Source: Gaiellaceae bacterium (GTDB lineage: Bacteria > Actinomycetota > Thermoleophilia > Gaiellales > Gaiellaceae). From it: a DNA stretch of 64,000 bases. The translations under genes and the position numbers were made by a program. How positions within the stretch are numbered: the first letter of the stretch is position 1; every line of letters starts with the position of its first letter. Of this stretch, positions 7,100-42,758 are shown piece after piece. The notes beneath the pieces are model-generated. The model ran no database searches. It saw nothing but the letters and a program-made list of their open reading frames with translations, and was not told where the DNA came from. Location: the NCBI GenBank assembly GCA_035764085.1, contig DASTZY010000082.1, forward strand, positions 11,218 to 75,217, read 5' to 3'.

Positions 7100-7184
7100 G
7101 CGGCGGTGGCGGAACTGGTCTACGCGCCGGACTCAAAATCCGGTGCCCCTCTGGGGCTTGTGGGTTCGACTCCCACCCGCCGCA
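7100..7184 (+). tRNA. tRNA-Leu (anticodon CAA), type II with a long variable arm, no encoded CCA
   Basis: Acceptor GCGGCGG/CCGCCGC, anticodon stem CCGGA/TCCGG with loop CTCAAAA, long variable arm, T arm GTGGG-TTCGACT-CCCAC, discriminator A at 7184. Confidence 0.9.
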
Positions 7185-7188
7185 CTCG

Positions 7189-35866: not shown

Positions 35867-37277
35867 AGGCGGCGGCGCCGGCGGCACCCAGGCCGAGGAT
35901 CGCGGCGACGCGGCCGGAGGTCACCTGCGCCCCGGGCAGGCTGCCGAACAGGTGCGCGCATGCGGCCAGGTAGGCGGCGAGCCACCCGTTGACCCATGCG
36001 AGCCCGGCTGCGAGCGGTGGCGCCACCGGCCCGAGCAGCGCGCAGCAGAGCGCGAGTGCGAGCATCGGCGCGGCGACGAAGCCGCCGACCGCGTTGGCGG
36101 GCACCGTGAGCAGCGGGATCTGGTGGAACTGGAACCACGAGATCGGTGCCGTCGCGAGACCGCAGGCCGCGGAGATCGCGACGACAGGTCGCAGGGCGGA
36201 GGGAAGCGGGTAGCCCTCCAGCCACGTGCTGAACCGCGGCGCGAGAAAAAAGATCGCCAGCACCGCGGCGAAGGAGAGCTGGAAGCCCGGGTCCAGCGCG
36301 TTGTACGGACTCCAGGCGAGCAGGGCGGCCGCGGCGACGACGAGGGCATGCAGAGCGTCGCGCTGGCGGCCGGTCAGCCAGGCGAGGGAGCCGAGCGCAC
36401 CGGCAATGCCTGCGCGGACGACGGATGGCTGGGCCCCCACGGCGAGGACGTAGCCCGCGATCGCGGCGAGCACGGCGACCTCCGCAGGCAGGCGCGGCAC
36501 GCCGAGGAGCAGCGCGAGCCAAAGCGTCCCGAGCGCGACCACGGCAACGTTGCCGCCACTGACTGCGAGCAAGTGGTACAGGCCGCTGGCACGAAAGTCC
36601 TGGCGGAGCGCCTCGGACAGTCCCTGGTCCTCACCGAGAACGACGCCTTCGATGACGCCCCTGCGCACACCACCCACGCCGGGAGCCGACGCGGAGCCAA
36701 GCCACGCGTGCAGTCGGTCGGCGAGGCCGGCGAGCCCGCCGCGCCGTCCGACGACGCGCCAGTCGTCCGCGCGCAGCACGGCGTGGATTCCGTGGCGACG
36801 GAGCCAGGTGCGTTCGTCGAAGCCGTGCGACGGCCCGCGCGGCGCGCGGAGCTGACCGATCAGCGCTAGGCGGGCGCCCTGCGGGGGGGCGCGGCCGAGC
36901 GGCAGCTCGAGCTGCACCGGCTCGTGCGGTGACAGGTCACCCCAACGCAGGACGAGTGCTCGGACGCGAAGCTCGAACGGGCCGTGCCGGACGGGCTCTT
37001 CGATCTCGACGACGGCGCGCTCCGCGGTGCCGATGCGCGGGGCGAGCTCGCTCCGGTCGATCGCCGCGAGGCGGGCGCTCCCGAAGGCCCACCCGACCGC
37101 TGCCACCCCGAGCCCGGCGAGTGCCAGCGCCGTACGAGGCGAGGTCGCCGCCAGCGAGACGGCGAGAAGCGCTCCGGCTGAGAGCAGCGCAGGCACGAGG
37201 CCGACGCGTGCGACTGTCGAGGCCGCTAGGCCGAGGCAGAGCGCGCAGCCGAGCGTGTGCGGCACGCGCAGCGTCAC
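35754..37277 (-). CDS. comEC: ComEC/Rec2-family DNA internalization channel (no metallo-beta-lactamase domain seen)
   Basis: Tail of track ORF 35754..37883. GTG 37277 lies in a GTGA overlap. Polytopic, with motif GLYHLLAVSGGNV. Confidence 0.85.
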   Translation of the reverse strand: MTLRVPHTLGCALCLGLAASTVARVGLVPALLSAGALLAVSLAATSPRTALALAGLGVAAVGWAFGSARLAAIDRSELAPRIGTAERAVVEIEEPVRHGPFELRVRALVLRWGDLSPHEPVQLELPLGRAPPQGARLALIGQLRAPRGPSHGFDERTWLRRHGIHAVLRADDWRVVGRRGGLAGLADRLHAWLGSASAPGVGGVRRGVIEGVVLGEDQGLSEALRQDFRASGLYHLLAVSGGNVAVVALGTLWLALLLGVPRLPAEVAVLAAIAGYVLAVGAQPSVVRAGIAGALGSLAWLTGRQRDALHALVVAAAALLAWSPYNALDPGFQLSFAAVLAIFFLAPRFSTWLEGYPLPSALRPVVAISAACGLATAPISWFQFHQIPLLTVPANAVGGFVAAPMLALALCCALLGPVAPPLAAGLAWVNGWLAAYLAACAHLFGSLPGAQVTSGRVAAILGLGAAGAAAYAWQRGERTRPEAGLPPDGDGPAEDRGGAPAPAGADR

Positions 37278-39029: not shown

Positions 39030-41405
39030 CTAGACGACGAAGTTGACGAGCTTCTTGGGGACGACGATCGTCTTGCGCGGCTCACCGCCGTCGAGGTAGC
39101 TCCGCACGCGCTCGCTCTCGCGCGCCCGGGCCACGAGGTCGTCCTCGCTCAGGCCCGCGTCCACCTCGAAGCGGTCCCGTACCTTGCCGTTCACCTGGAC
39201 GACCAGCTCGAACGTCTCCCGCACGAGTTGCGCCTCGTCGGCCTCCGGCCACGGCTCCTGCCACAGGCGCTCGTGCCCCAGCACCGTCCAGAGCTCCTCC
39301 GCGACGTGCGGCGCGTACGGCTGGATGAGCGAGACTGCCGTCTCCGCGGCGAACCGCGCGTCGGGCGCGTCGACCGCGCCGCCGAGCTCGTTGACCAGCT
39401 CCATCATGGCCGAGATCGGCGTGTGGAACTGGAAGCGGCGCAGCACGTCGTCCGTCACCCGCACGATCGTCTCGTTCGCCTTCTGCGCCAGCCCTCCCTC
39501 GCGCTCGCCCGGGGACGGCGCCGCCTCGGCCACCTCGTGCACGACGCGCCACAGCCGGCGCAGGAAGCGCACGATCCCCTCCACCCCGGCAGGCGTCCAC
39601 TCCATGTCCTGGTCGGCCGGGCCCATGAACAGGATGTAGAGCCGCACGGCGTCGGCGCCGTACGCGTCCACGACCGCGTCCGGCCCCTCGACGTTCCCCT
39701 TCGTCTTCGACATCTTCGTCCCGCCGAGCGTCACCCACCCCTGGTGGAAGACGCGGGCGAACGGCTCCCGGAAGCCGACCATCCCCCAGTCGTTCATCGC
39801 CTTGACGAAGAAGCGCGAGTAGAGCAGATGGCCGGTCGAGTGGTCGATGCCGCCGATGTACTGGGAGACCGGCAGCCAGTAGTCGACGACGAACCGGTCG
39901 AACGGCGCCTCGTCGTTGTGCGAGTCGATGTAGCGGAGGAAGTACCAGGAGGAGTCGACGAACGTGTCCATCGTGTCCGGGTCGCGGCGCGCCGGCGCGC
40001 CGCACTGCGGGCAGTCGACGGCCATGTACTCCTCGTTGGCGGCGAGCGGCGGCTTCCCCTTCGGGGCGTAGTCCTCGATGTCGGGCAGGATCACGGGCAG
40101 GTCGTCCTCGGGCACCGGGACGACGCCGCACTGCTCGCAGTGGATGAACGGGATCGGGCAGCCCCAGTAGCGCTGACGCGAGACGCTCCAGTCGCGCAGC
40201 CGGTAGTTGACGGTGGCCTTGCCCCGACCCTCGGCCTCGAGCGCGGCCACGATCGCGCGCGCGCCCTCCTCGGCCGGCAGCCCGTCGAACTGCCCGGAGT
40301 TGACGAGCTTCCCGCCGTCGTCGATCACGACCTTAGTCGGCAGGACGAAGGTCTCGGCGAACTCGCCGTCGCGCTCGTCGTGGGCGGGGACGGCCATGAT
40401 CGCGCCTGTGCCGTAGTCCATCAGCACGTAGTCGGCGACCCAGATCGGCAGCCGCTCGCCGTTGATCGGGTTGACCGCATGCAGGCCGGTGAAGACGCCG
40501 GTCTTCGTCGTCCCGGCGGCGCGCTCCTCGACGGGCCTCGCGCCCGCGTGCCGCGCGTACTCCTTCGCCTCGCCGCTCCCGTGCGCCTCGACGAACGGGT
40601 GCTCCGGCGCGACGACGAAGAACGTCGCGCCGAACAGCGTGTCGGCGCGGGTGGTGAAGACCGCGAGGTCGTCGCCGGTCTCCTCGACGCGGAAGAGGAT
40701 CTCGGCGCCCTCCGAGCGGCCGATCCAGTTCCGCTGGATCGTCATCGTCCGTGTCGGCCACTCCGCTCCGGGGTACTCGAGCAACTCGTCCGCGTAGGCC
40801 GTCGTCCGCATGTACCACTGCGTCATGTTCCGAAGCTCGACCTCCGAGCCGCAGCGCTCGCAGCGGCCGTCCACGACGTACTCGTTCGCGATCACGGTCT
40901 GGTCGTTGGGGCACCAGTTGACCGGCCCTTCCCTCCGGTAGCAGAGGTCGTGGGCCACGAACTGCTGGAAGAGCCACTGCGTCCAGCGGTAGAAGGTCGG
41001 CTGGTGAGCCGAGACCTCGCGGTCCCAGTCGATCGCCCAGCCCAGCCGCTTCATCTGGGCGCGCATCGTCTCGATGTTCCGCTCGATCGTCTCGCGCGGG
41101 TGCCGCCCCTCCCGGATCGCCGCGTTCTCGGCCGGCAGACCGAACGCGTCCCAGCCCATCGGCCGCACGACGTGCCAGCCGCTCCGCCGGCGCACGTGCG
41201 TCTGCACGTCGCCCATCGTGTAGTTGAGGACGTGACCCATGTGCAGGCTCGGGCCGGACGGGTACGGCAGCATCTCGAGCTGGTACCAGTGGTTCTCGGC
41301 CGCGGGCTCGCCGGGCTGCGGGTTCTCGACCCTGAACGCGCCCTCGTCCTCCCAGACGCGCTGCCACTTGGCCTCGATCGCGTGCGGCTCGTATCTCGGT
41401 GTCAT
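39030..41405 (-). CDS. leuS: Leucine--tRNA ligase
   Basis: 791 aa. HIGH-type motif LHMGHVLNY and KMSKS-type motif GTKMSKTKGN. Confidence 0.95.
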   Translation of the reverse strand: MTPRYEPHAIEAKWQRVWEDEGAFRVENPQPGEPAAENHWYQLEMLPYPSGPSLHMGHVLNYTMGDVQTHVRRRSGWHVVRPMGWDAFGLPAENAAIREGRHPRETIERNIETMRAQMKRLGWAIDWDREVSAHQPTFYRWTQWLFQQFVAHDLCYRREGPVNWCPNDQTVIANEYVVDGRCERCGSEVELRNMTQWYMRTTAYADELLEYPGAEWPTRTMTIQRNWIGRSEGAEILFRVEETGDDLAVFTTRADTLFGATFFVVAPEHPFVEAHGSGEAKEYARHAGARPVEERAAGTTKTGVFTGLHAVNPINGERLPIWVADYVLMDYGTGAIMAVPAHDERDGEFAETFVLPTKVVIDDGGKLVNSGQFDGLPAEEGARAIVAALEAEGRGKATVNYRLRDWSVSRQRYWGCPIPFIHCEQCGVVPVPEDDLPVILPDIEDYAPKGKPPLAANEEYMAVDCPQCGAPARRDPDTMDTFVDSSWYFLRYIDSHNDEAPFDRFVVDYWLPVSQYIGGIDHSTGHLLYSRFFVKAMNDWGMVGFREPFARVFHQGWVTLGGTKMSKTKGNVEGPDAVVDAYGADAVRLYILFMGPADQDMEWTPAGVEGIVRFLRRLWRVVHEVAEAAPSPGEREGGLAQKANETIVRVTDDVLRRFQFHTPISAMMELVNELGGAVDAPDARFAAETAVSLIQPYAPHVAEELWTVLGHERLWQEPWPEADEAQLVRETFELVVQVNGKVRDRFEVDAGLSEDDLVARARESERVRSYLDGGEPRKTIVVPKKLVNFVV

Positions 41406-41427
41406 CGAAGAAACGTCCTCTGGAACG

Positions 41428-41449
41428 AAAAAACCTCTCCGAGGAGAGG
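41428..41449 (-). terminator. Intrinsic terminator-like hairpin plus U6 inside the leuS 5' leader (candidate attenuator)
   Basis: The minus-strand RNA reads CCUCUC-CUCG-GAGAGG-UUUUUU. The U-tract ends 22 nt before the leuS ATG (41405). Confidence 0.6.
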
Positions 41450-41492
41450 CCGTGGGAGGCTGGCGCGGAAGCTCCGCGCGTGTCTCCCTGAA

Positions 41493-41516
41493 CTAGGTAA
41501 GAAGCAGCTCCTGCAT
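41493..41516 (-). promoter_or_regulatory. Candidate leader peptide ORF MQELLLT* (three consecutive Leu codons)
   Basis: ATG CAG GAG CTG CTT CTT ACC TAG on the minus strand, upstream of two hairpins and the terminator. No clear SD. TGCTAGTAT (extended -10-like) ends 10 nt upstream of the ATG. Confidence 0.35.
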
Positions 41517-41537
41517 CGGGGTCTCGATACTAGCACC

Positions 41538-42758
41538 GTGCTCGAGCTCCTTCCCGAAACCGCGCGGATCGAGGACGGCGAGCTGTCGCTGGGCGGCGTC
41601 CGCGTGACGCGGCTCGCGGAGGAGCACGGGACGCCGCTCGTCGTCTACTGCGAGGCCACGATCCGCTCTCAGGTGCGCGCGTACCGCGAGGCCGCGCCGG
41701 GGGCACTCGTCGTCTACGGGACGAAGGCGTTCGCGAACGTCGCGCTGCTGCGGCTGCTCGCGGAGGAGGGCGCCGGCGCCGACGTCTCGACGCTCGGCGA
41801 GCTCGCGTTCGCGCTCGCCGCCGGGATCCCGGGCGAGGGGCTCGTCTTCCACGGCAACAACAAGTCGGAGGAGGAGCTGCGCGCGGCGGCGGAGGCCGGC
41901 GCGCTCGTCGTGCTCGACGGGCCGGGCGAGGCGGAGGCGGCCGCGGCGGCGGGCGTGCGTCGGGTGCTCGTGCGGCTGACGCCGGGCGTCGAGGCGGTGA
42001 CGCACCGCTCGATCCAGACGGCGCACGAGGAGTCGAAGTTCGGGCTGGCCCCCGACGCGGCCGAGCGCGAGGTGGATCGCGCGCGCGAGCTGGGGCTACA
42101 GGTCGAGGGCGTGCACGTCCACGTCGGCTCCCAGCTCGGGCGGGTGGACGAGAGCGTCGTCGCGCTCGAGCGCGCGCTCGCGTTCCTCGAGCGGCTCGAC
42201 TGGAAGCCGCGCACCCTCGACCTCGGCGGCGGTCTCGGCGTCCGGCACAACCGCGACGAGCGGCTCCCGTCCGTGGCCGAGTTCGTGGGCCCGCTCGCCG
42301 CACGCGTCCCGGACAGCGTCTCGCTGATCCTCGAGCCCGGCCGCTCGCTCGTCGGCCGCGCCGGCGTGACGCTGTACCGCGTCGGCTCGGTCAAGGAGTC
42401 CGGCGGCGTCACGTACGCGGCGATCGACGGCGGGATGTCCGACAACCCGCGCCCGCAGCTCTACGGCGCCCGCTACGAGGCCCTGCTGGCGAACCGCGCG
42501 GAGGAGCTGCCCAGCGGCGTCTACCGCGTCGCCGGCAAGCACTGCGAGTCGGGTGACGTGCTGATCGAGGCGGCCGAGCTGCCGGAGCCGCGGCCGGAGG
42601 ACCTGCTCGCCGTGCCGGCGACGGGCGCGTACACGCTCGCGCTCGGCTCGACGTACAACGGCGTCCCGCGGCCCGCGGTCGTCCTGGTCGGCGACGGCGA
42701 GGCGCGTCTGGTGCGGGCTCGGGAGACCGTGGACGATCTCCTACGCTTCGAGAGATGA
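41538..42758 (+). CDS. lysA: Diaminopimelate decarboxylase
   Basis: Tail of track ORF 39228..42758, starting at GTG 41538. Motifs HGTPLVVY, HVHVGSQ, EPGRSLVG, CESGD, GAYT. Confidence 0.9.
   Translation: MLELLPETARIEDGELSLGGVRVTRLAEEHGTPLVVYCEATIRSQVRAYREAAPGALVVYGTKAFANVALLRLLAEEGAGADVSTLGELAFALAAGIPGEGLVFHGNNKSEEELRAAAEAGALVVLDGPGEAEAAAAAGVRRVLVRLTPGVEAVTHRSIQTAHEESKFGLAPDAAEREVDRARELGLQVEGVHVHVGSQLGRVDESVVALERALAFLERLDWKPRTLDLGGGLGVRHNRDERLPSVAEFVGPLAARVPDSVSLILEPGRSLVGRAGVTLYRVGSVKESGGVTYAAIDGGMSDNPRPQLYGARYEALLANRAEELPSGVYRVAGKHCESGDVLIEAAELPEPRPEDLLAVPATGAYTLALGSTYNGVPRPAVVLVGDGEARLVRARETVDDLLRFER

Follow-up and report, generated by a model that had tools for sequence, protein, structure and literature searches.

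The window, by which we mean the whole 64,000-nucleotide stretch of Gaiellaceae DNA analyzed here, has a G+C content of 71.5% and includes a divergent spacer of 132 nt between the ATG start codon of leuS (41405) and the GTG start codon of lysA (41538). The minus strand of this spacer carries a set of leader features upstream of leuS, and every sequence feature that a first-pass annotation of this DNA had listed there was found in its place, correct to the base. The genes and features are as follows; the entries for the Leu codons, the GGGAGA hexamer, the hairpin core, the U6 tract, and the Shine-Dalgarno (SD)-like element are read directly from the letters.

41538..42758, plus strand: lysA (diaminopimelate decarboxylase), the divergent neighbor (NCBIfam TIGR01048, 392 bits).
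41526..41531, minus strand: −10-like hexamer TAGTAT of the putative leader promoter, a TAnnnT box conserved among leaders.
41493..41516, minus strand: mini-ORF MQELLLT* (ATG CAG GAG CTG CTT CTT ACC TAG), from the sequence and the comparison of 58 leaders.
41507..41499, minus strand: the Leu codons CTG CTT CTT of the mini-ORF.
41484..41488, minus strand: P1 5' strand GGGAG, 4 nt after the stop codon, with compensatory changes at all five pairs.
41488..41483, minus strand: GGGAGA.
41463..41479, minus strand: P2 hairpin GCGCGGA-GCU-UCCGCGC, enclosed by P1, with five of seven pairs changing on both sides.
41454..41458, minus strand: P1 3' strand CUCCC, covarying with the P1 5' strand.
41428..41451, minus strand: intrinsic-terminator-like hairpin GGCCUCUC-CUCG-GAGAGGUU with its U6 tract, from a terminator scan and conservation.
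41449..41428, minus strand: the core of this hairpin, CCUCUC-CUCG-GAGAGG, with the U6 tract.
41433..41428, minus strand: the U6 tract.
41416..41421, minus strand: SD-like AGAGGA of leuS; relatives have a GGAG-like element before leuS.
39030..41405, minus strand: leuS (leucine--tRNA ligase, 791 amino acids; NCBIfam TIGR00396, 912 bits against a cutoff of 548).

The MFE fold of the spacer consists of two hairpins and the GGGAG/CUCCC helix (z = −2.05). The second hairpin and its T run, which the first-pass annotation had taken for an intrinsic terminator, are called a terminator by a consensus scan, and the gap of 22 nt between the U tract and the leuS ATG agrees with its remark that no promoter could fit there. 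The annotation had also noticed one other A/T run of six, and the window indeed holds exactly two A6/T6 runs. The other, at 36246..36251, encodes Phe-Phe (ATC TTT TTT CTC) in a ComEC/Rec2-like gene downstream of leuS; we rejected it as a second attenuator, the terminator-like match there sitting inside coding sequence. A 177-amino-acid minus-strand ORF (41493..42026), with which the mini-ORF is in frame, was likewise rejected as a gene, being antisense to lysA and extending into sequence upstream of the mini-ORF that varies among relatives.

No T-box sequence had been seen in the spacer, and Rfam scans bear this out. Nothing matched any family, the T-box included, at E values up to 10 in 41200..41800; no T-box (RF00230) or other relevant family reached the gathering threshold across the whole window; representative Gaiellales and Streptomyces loci yielded nothing relevant; and the enterobacterial and lactococcal Leu leader families of Rfam did not match the leader. 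The only tRNA gene in the window encodes tRNA-Leu(CAA) (7100..7185, plus strand), an isoacceptor that does not read CUU, CUC, or CUG, the codons used in the mini-ORF.

A LeuS scan limited to one genome per species gave 80 loci, all from Gaiellales or other Thermoleophilia MAGs, with LeuS identities of 53 to 92%. The leader is present at 58 of these 80 leuS loci, all from Gaiellales (Thermoleophilia), an order of soil actinobacteria, and runs in the order −10-like box, mini-ORF, P1 enclosing P2, terminator-like hairpin with U5-6, leuS SD, and start codon. The motif CCTCTC-N3-7-GAGAGG, for which 0.09 occurrences would be expected in the window, is found there once, and it is found exactly once per locus in the 58 related loci, always just upstream of leuS. 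Because they are conserved in relatives, the leader features lie far beyond chance. A covariance model built from 53 leaders recovered the 58 with E values of 1e-5 to 1e-21, the main clade scoring 68 to 99 bits and the divergent members L036, L038, L057, L067, and L076 scoring 35 to 47 bits. The gene upstream of the leader varies among the relatives while the leader stays; the leader therefore belongs to leuS and not to lysA, which bounds the leader and is not part of the element. leuS, on the best reading, is the gene that the leader regulates.

Among the 58 leaders, the mini-ORF occurs in 47 distinct sequences. It starts with ATG (37 leaders) or GTG (21 leaders), stops in frame at TAG (39), TAA (10), or TGA (9), and measures 5 to 9 codons, its length changing in whole codons only. 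The end of the mini-ORF reads Leu-Leu-X-stop, with Leu at codon −3 in 55/58 leaders and at codon −2 in 56/58; CTT, CTC, CTG, or TTG is used at these two positions, each mini-ORF holds two to four Leu codons, and no residue of the peptide besides Leu-Leu is conserved. Attenuator leaders are known to employ rare codons whose isoacceptors are sensitive to starvation. CTT had been described as looking rare in this genome, and in the window's leuS and lysA taken together it accounts for just 2 of 100 Leu codons. In the mini-ORFs, CTT makes up 76 of 138 Leu codons (55%), whereas the leuS genes at those loci use it for 64 of 3236 (2.0%), a 27-fold enrichment of the rare CUU over the adjacent leuS genes. 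CTT can occupy either Leu position, a shift of exactly three bases, and this placement appears to fit a codon-level constraint better than a nucleotide-level one. The switching of start and stop codons, the whole-codon insertions and deletions, the synonymous turnover of Leu codons, and the nearby −10 box support the view that the mini-ORF behaves as a real coding unit and, indirectly, that it is translated.

A TAnnnT box lies 7 to 10 nt upstream of the mini-ORF start in 53/54 leaders. Transcription would be predicted, from this spacing, to begin 0 to 3 nt before the mini-ORF ATG, and the leader mRNA would therefore be leaderless or nearly leaderless. On the opposite strand, the hexamer GATACT ends 7 nt before the lysA GTG at 41538 (41525..41540), and lysA too appears, from its sequence, to be leaderless. 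GATACT overlaps the TAGTAT of the leuS leader by 5 nt, and with −10 hexamers that overlap in this way the divergent lysA and leuS-leader promoters would compete for one RNA polymerase site.

Downstream of the mini-ORF, the geometry of the leader is nearly fixed. The spacer from the stop codon to P1 is 4 nt in 52/53 leaders, the junction between P1 and the terminator is 3 to 4 nt in 51/53, and the U run is 5 to 6 nt in 48/53. Changes on both sides of a pair were seen at 14 pairs across the helices, a number reached in none of 500 shuffles, with covariation counted on a structure-fitted alignment, which inflates the paired fraction; RNAalifold applied to a plain MAFFT alignment returned the same three helices. 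The terminator-like hairpin, of 8 to 9 bp and followed by U5-6, lies 14 to 40 nt before leuS at the 58 loci and has the common plan GGCCUCUC-loop-GAGAGGCU plus U5-6. Its six-pair core, CCUCUC/GAGAGG, is invariant in 57/58 leaders, the exception being a compensated change in L057, and the basal and apical pairs that flank the core covary in the model-fitted alignment. Terminator core and P2 are conserved in sequence and not only in pairing; the internal loop and the hairpin loops, that of P2 included, are variable. A further helix of two base pairs, P0, which in some folds joins nucleotides after the stop codon to the basal GG of the terminator, was discarded as too weak and is absent from the AGCC clade.

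The divergent members vary this plan. L067 and L076, from more distant Gaiellales, have other helix sequences, yet they keep three to four Leu codons directly before the stop codon and, behind it, the series of P1, P2, and terminator known from the main clade. The leader of L057 (3909-3990) is without P2; its ORF is MQELLTTD*, the stop codon of which overlaps the P1 5' strand, and its terminator core, CCUCCC/GGGAGG, is the sole compensated core change in the family. Despite the shifted stop codon, the distance from the Leu codons to P1 in L057 is the same as in the main clade, which suggests that the stop-to-P1 and Leu-to-P1 distances both matter. In L060 (3892-3985; peptide MEQPLG*) the first Leu codon is CCT and the stretch is thereby identical to the terminator 5' arm; there and in L044 (3876-3969) the U tract is interrupted (CUCUUUU), and the attenuator may, judging by these changes, be weakened in both.

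Other relatives have lost part or all of the leader. The loci L036, L035, and L039, from three related species, illustrate stepwise decay: the leader is complete in L036, with the peptide VATLLH*; L035 keeps only the hairpin, directly after the −10 box; and in L039 the leader is gone and leuS starts 9 nt after the −10 box. L077, like L035, keeps the hairpin without the mini-ORF. L005, a close relative with 91% LeuS identity, has no leader in the 75 nt before leuS (1-75), at which point its contig ends, and only the SD-proximal bases resemble the window; the absence could be a loss, a rearrangement, or an assembly artifact. Since the leader is not seen in this close relative and is lost in some others, it must be dispensable. 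The more distant Thermoleophilia (L061 to L065, L068 to L075, L078, and L079) have leuS without a leader, its start codon lying about 7 nt after a TAGAAT/TATACT-like box, so that leuS itself looks leaderless at these outgroup loci. Three of the outgroup records (L071, L073, and L079) are MAG contigs titled Bifidobacterium, the LeuS and upstream region of which resemble those of the Thermoleophilia outgroup; the source records may carry a wrong taxonomic label.

The conserved leader and the CTT enrichment of its mini-ORFs make a leucine-sensing, ribosome-mediated attenuator, as the first-pass annotation had proposed in general terms, the best reading of this region; the alternative fold proposed with it did not find support. 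We judge it probable, if well short of certain, that the leader is a leader-peptide transcription attenuator, through which leuS transcription is tied to the charging of tRNA-Leu. On this reading, the transcription start would coincide with the mini-ORF start codon or lie no more than about 3 nt from it, and a 70S ribosome would translate the 5 to 9 codons of the mini-ORF, meeting two adjacent Leu codons, mostly the rare CUU, then one further codon and the stop codon. About 70 nt downstream, the hairpin with its U5-6 would end most transcripts before leuS.

To place the ribosome relative to P1, we let its footprint extend to position +15, counted from the first base of the P site. A ribosome with its A site on a Leu codon leaves P1, which then begins at +17 to +20, outside the footprint and free to form; once the A site has reached the stop codon, P1 begins at +11 and must therefore be opened. 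In this model, P1 would be the sole structure identified between the mini-ORF and the terminator that depends on the position of the ribosome. A ribosome that reaches the stop codon would thus open P1, and a ribosome stalled at a Leu codon would leave it intact. Physiology would have the intact P1 of the stalled state favor read-through and the opened P1 favor termination, the sign of the P1 effect being chosen so that the circuit provides negative feedback on tRNA-Leu charging.

The fold put forward in the first-pass annotation was a different one, in which GGGAGA has a choice of two partners: CUCCC, which leaves the terminator free to form, and UCUCCU in the terminator's own 5' arm, which yields an antiterminator, with the stalled ribosome choosing the latter. 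The two pairings are near-isoenergetic in the nascent RNA of the window and of L001, L007, L030, and L080 (ddG of −0.2 to −2.2 kcal/mol, comparing unconstrained folds with folds in which the terminator 5' arm was kept unpaired), but this holds only in the window's own small clade. In the alignment of the leuS upstream regions of the relatives, which showed the Leu-codon run and the hairpin with its U tract to be conserved (58 leaders), the alternative pairing was neither conserved nor covarying: 73% of cells were paired, against 66 to 86% in slid controls. A single compensatory cell across the 58 leaders was matched by 160 of 500 shuffles, and the P1 5' strand drifts (GGAAG, GGAGG, GGGAA) in step with its partner CUCCC, whereas the terminator arm stays invariant. 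Masking by the ribosome also gives no lever that would favor the antiterminator pairing over P1. We consider this switch unlikely.

Nor did folding turn up another antiterminator. We folded the nascent RNA of 54 leaders under constraints representing four ribosome masks, and found no conserved antiterminator overlapping the terminator in the stalled state; the terminator 5' arm was without an upstream partner in most leaders, with a median ddG of 0. Placing a mask over the Leu codons, as the annotation had suggested, left the terminator able to form, with an equilibrium pairing probability of about 1, and the same value was obtained with the mask at the stop codon. Only in the ribosome-free state did the terminator probability fall, to a mean of 0.85. 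Weak alternative pairings occurred in the ribosome-free and stop-codon states, and these, as modeled, point against the proposed direction of regulation. P1 shares at most about 2 nt with the terminator and did not exclude it in equilibrium folding, the overlap being too small for mutual exclusion in free RNA. As folding gives no switch acting on the terminator, the direction of regulation is one that we infer.

The drop seen only in the absence of a ribosome is what would be expected if the logic ran in reverse, that is, if free Leu codons (CUNCUY) mimicked the terminator 5' arm and paired with GAGAGG or with the P1 5' strand, so that occupancy of the leader promotes the terminator and an empty leader is read through. 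In register, 93% of cells of the Leu codons can pair with GAGAGG and 88% with the P1 5' strand, against 55 to 68% and 52 to 77%, respectively, in slid registers; in L015, L022, L024, and L043 the MFE fold of the whole leader uses a long-range helix with the Leu codons. Such pairing would also explain the invariance of the terminator core, which would be tied to Leu codons under coding constraint. However, both sides are invariant and covariation is therefore impossible, leaders with CUG CUU or CUC CUU (19/57) lose the central pair, and complementarity follows whenever any CUN-CUN meets a purine-rich arm. Moreover, termination could equally well result from a helix that ends at the U tract, and LeuRS would be lowered as the charging of tRNA-Leu falls, a positive feedback that seems maladaptive. 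We therefore regard reversed logic as improbable; the complementarities themselves, seen in the alignment, could reflect a 1:2-type pairing that terminates untranslated leaders, the occupancy model just described, or nothing beyond the encounter of CUN-CUN with purines.

A further alternative places control at translation, with a pyrimidine-rich segment sequestering the leuS SD unless a ribosome stalls on the Leu codons, and with the hairpin and U tract secondary. The leader does contain several anti-SD-like tracts, and a small predicted hairpin can include the leuS SD. There is actinobacterial precedent in leaderless poly-Cys sORFs (bioRxiv 10.1101/834739), and a model proposed for the LEU element of actinobacterial leuA has Leu codons pairing with the SD (PMC1262725). 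However, our ribosome masks produced no predicted change in the leuS SD region, the fraction unpaired from −16 to +3 being 0.43, 0.45, and 0.42 with no ribosome, a stalled ribosome, and a ribosome at the stop codon, respectively, and SD-region accessibility improved by more than 0.1 in only 4/54 leaders. Translational attenuation would also leave unexplained the invariant U5-6 directly after the hairpin, and we give it very little credence.

It is also conceivable that the leader does not sense leucine at all and is instead a constitutive leaky terminator or 5' structure, an independent gene for a small RNA or micropeptide, or the binding site of a protein (e.g., in LeuRS autoregulation) or of a tRNA. 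The sequence conservation of the terminator core and P2 is what a recognized site would be expected to show, L035 and L077 retain the hairpin without the ORF, and folding found no antiterminator. These readings nevertheless do not explain the conservation of Leu-Leu, the 27-fold enrichment of CUU, or the fixed geometry from ORF to P1. The variable internal and hairpin loops, the lack of a T-box or other Rfam match, and the lack of conserved peptide residues apart from Leu-Leu also speak against them. A leader blind to leucine thus seems highly improbable to us.

Returning to the leucine-sensing attenuator, how P1 would oppose the terminator is a matter for guesswork. P1 might do so by steric hindrance inside RNA polymerase, or it might compete weakly for the terminator's two basal G residues. 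The first of these can be elaborated into a conjecture that we find doubtful but possible: P1 and P2, lying 0 to 4 nt upstream of the base of the terminator, would sterically block its completion inside RNA polymerase, a ribosome at the stop codon would license termination, this arrangement would be common to the Gaiellales and Streptomyces leaders, and the Leu codons, the P1 5' strand, and the terminator arms would be interlocked. If true, this interlocked set of purine and pyrimidine segments would explain the invariant terminator core. Mimicry of tRNA or binding of LeuRS, a triplex, a put-like modifier of RNA polymerase, and a NusG pause motif were also considered and dropped, none having specific support.

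Leader-peptide attenuators of the classical kind have been predicted for leuS before, in Streptomyces avermitilis and S. coelicolor, where they were compared with pheST (Seliverstov et al. 2005; PMC1262725). In S. lividans, leuL2 (MRAVRLLLSEPR) lies upstream of leuS, has been mapped by its transcription start site as leaderless, and is followed by a hairpin and a U stretch before leuS (Droste et al. 2021; PMC8079986). The first-pass suggestion that such control of leuS was new to this kind of organism is thus not upheld, such control having already been predicted in Streptomyces. Our literature search found no description of a leuS leader attenuator in Gaiellales or Thermoleophilia. Nor did it find an experimental study of any leuS leader-peptide attenuator, those of Streptomyces, predicted for twenty years, included.

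For comparison, we scanned soil metagenomes for Streptomyces-type leaders. The full S. lividans leader-peptide DNA pattern gave no match, and a degenerate peptide pattern with a relaxed Ser codon gave 23 leaders, which are near-identical and amount to about one independent observation. They show a TACCCT box, 6 nt, and an ATG; the Leu codons CTT CTG CTT; an 11-bp P1 in which the end of the ORF (its last codons and the stop codon) pairs with the segment immediately preceding the terminator, with a variable inner hairpin; a 2-nt junction; and a CCCCUC/GAGGGG terminator with U5 and a C(G/A)UUUCC tail. The two kinds of leader resemble each other in preceding leuS in the same phylum, in having a leaderless-type ORF with adjacent Leu codons rich in CUU, and in a P1 that encloses a hairpin and is followed within a few nucleotides by a C/U-rich:G/A-rich terminator. 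In the Streptomyces leaders, too, P1 did not exclude the terminator in equilibrium folding and no overlapping antiterminator was found. They differ in that the Streptomyces ORF has 12 codons and holds the P1 5' strand inside its last codons and stop codon, whereas the Gaiellales ORF has 5 to 9 codons and P1 begins 4 nt after the stop codon; the helix sequences differ as well. The Gaiellales covariance model matches the Streptomyces leaders over their full length and in the right place, at 16 to 21 bits (E values of 0.07 to 0.9), a match so weak that common descent is not established. The Streptomyces-type leaders (L081 to L103) carry a second conserved block, GCCGCUGGCAGAGACGAUCGAUGGAGCUUUGAGGA, within the approximately 60 to 90 nt between the terminator and leuS. 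In sequence this block is similar to the P1 5' strand, and a pairing with the P1 3' strand near the SD would be possible, which hints at an additional, putative translational layer in these leaders.

Control of a tRNA synthetase by leader-peptide attenuation has its precedent in pheM-pheST of Escherichia coli. In the enterobacterial leu leader, the rare codon of choice is CUA. Like the Gaiellales leader, the pheM-pheST, leu, and trp leaders have a short ORF in which cognate codons form a run and rare codons are chosen, with an intrinsic terminator downstream. These classical leaders have an SD-led ORF of at least 14 codons and a well-defined 2:3 antiterminator that overlaps the terminator by several bases, whereas the Gaiellales ORF is probably of the leaderless type, has 5 to 9 codons, and has no such antiterminator detectable by folding; the Gaiellales leader matches no Rfam leader family. 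T-box riboswitches are the usual means of aminoacyl-tRNA synthetase control in Firmicutes, and short translational T-boxes control actinobacterial ileS. As predicted for the Gaiellales leader, an aminoacyl-tRNA synthetase gene there answers to tRNA charging, usually via a terminator. The Gaiellales leader differs in having no Stem I with specifier and no T-box sequence; its sensor appears to be a translated ORF.

Two further actinobacterial systems are related in mechanism. In the model proposed for the ilvB1 uORF attenuator of Mycobacterium tuberculosis (PMC13236596), a ribosome at the stop codon masks a helix just downstream. Like the Gaiellales leader, this actinobacterial element carries regulatory codons in a uORF, which in ilvB1 is translated, and a Rho-independent terminator that has a U tract; unlike the leuS leader, it governs biosynthetic genes, has been drawn with an antiterminator/terminator pair, and has been tested experimentally (PMC13236596). 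The mycobacterial poly-Cys sORFs (Canestrari et al., bioRxiv 10.1101/834739) act on translation and unmask a downstream RBS. What they share with the Gaiellales leader is a short ORF of the leaderless type whose cognate-codon run would serve as a ribosome-stalling sensor, but they have no terminator, whereas the Gaiellales leader has one and its RBS accessibility is predicted to be unchanged.

The Gaiellales leader is thus a further example of a control already predicted for leuS in Streptomyces, and the general picture of attenuation is unchanged by it. The leader is absent from Rfam, and the 58-member alignment could therefore seed a family. To our knowledge, its mini-ORF is among the shortest sensory ORFs known, with five to seven codons, two of which would do the sensing. 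The fixed geometry of Leu-Leu-X-stop, 4 nt, P1, 3 to 4 nt, and terminator makes for a compact system with a 58-member alignment, suited to asking how a leaderless mini-ORF couples to termination and whether antitermination is possible with a helix that only adjoins the terminator, a question that applies equally to the Streptomyces leuS leader. Thermoleophilia is a deep and almost unstudied class of actinobacteria, and on the best reading of these results, leader-peptide control of a tRNA synthetase extends to it.
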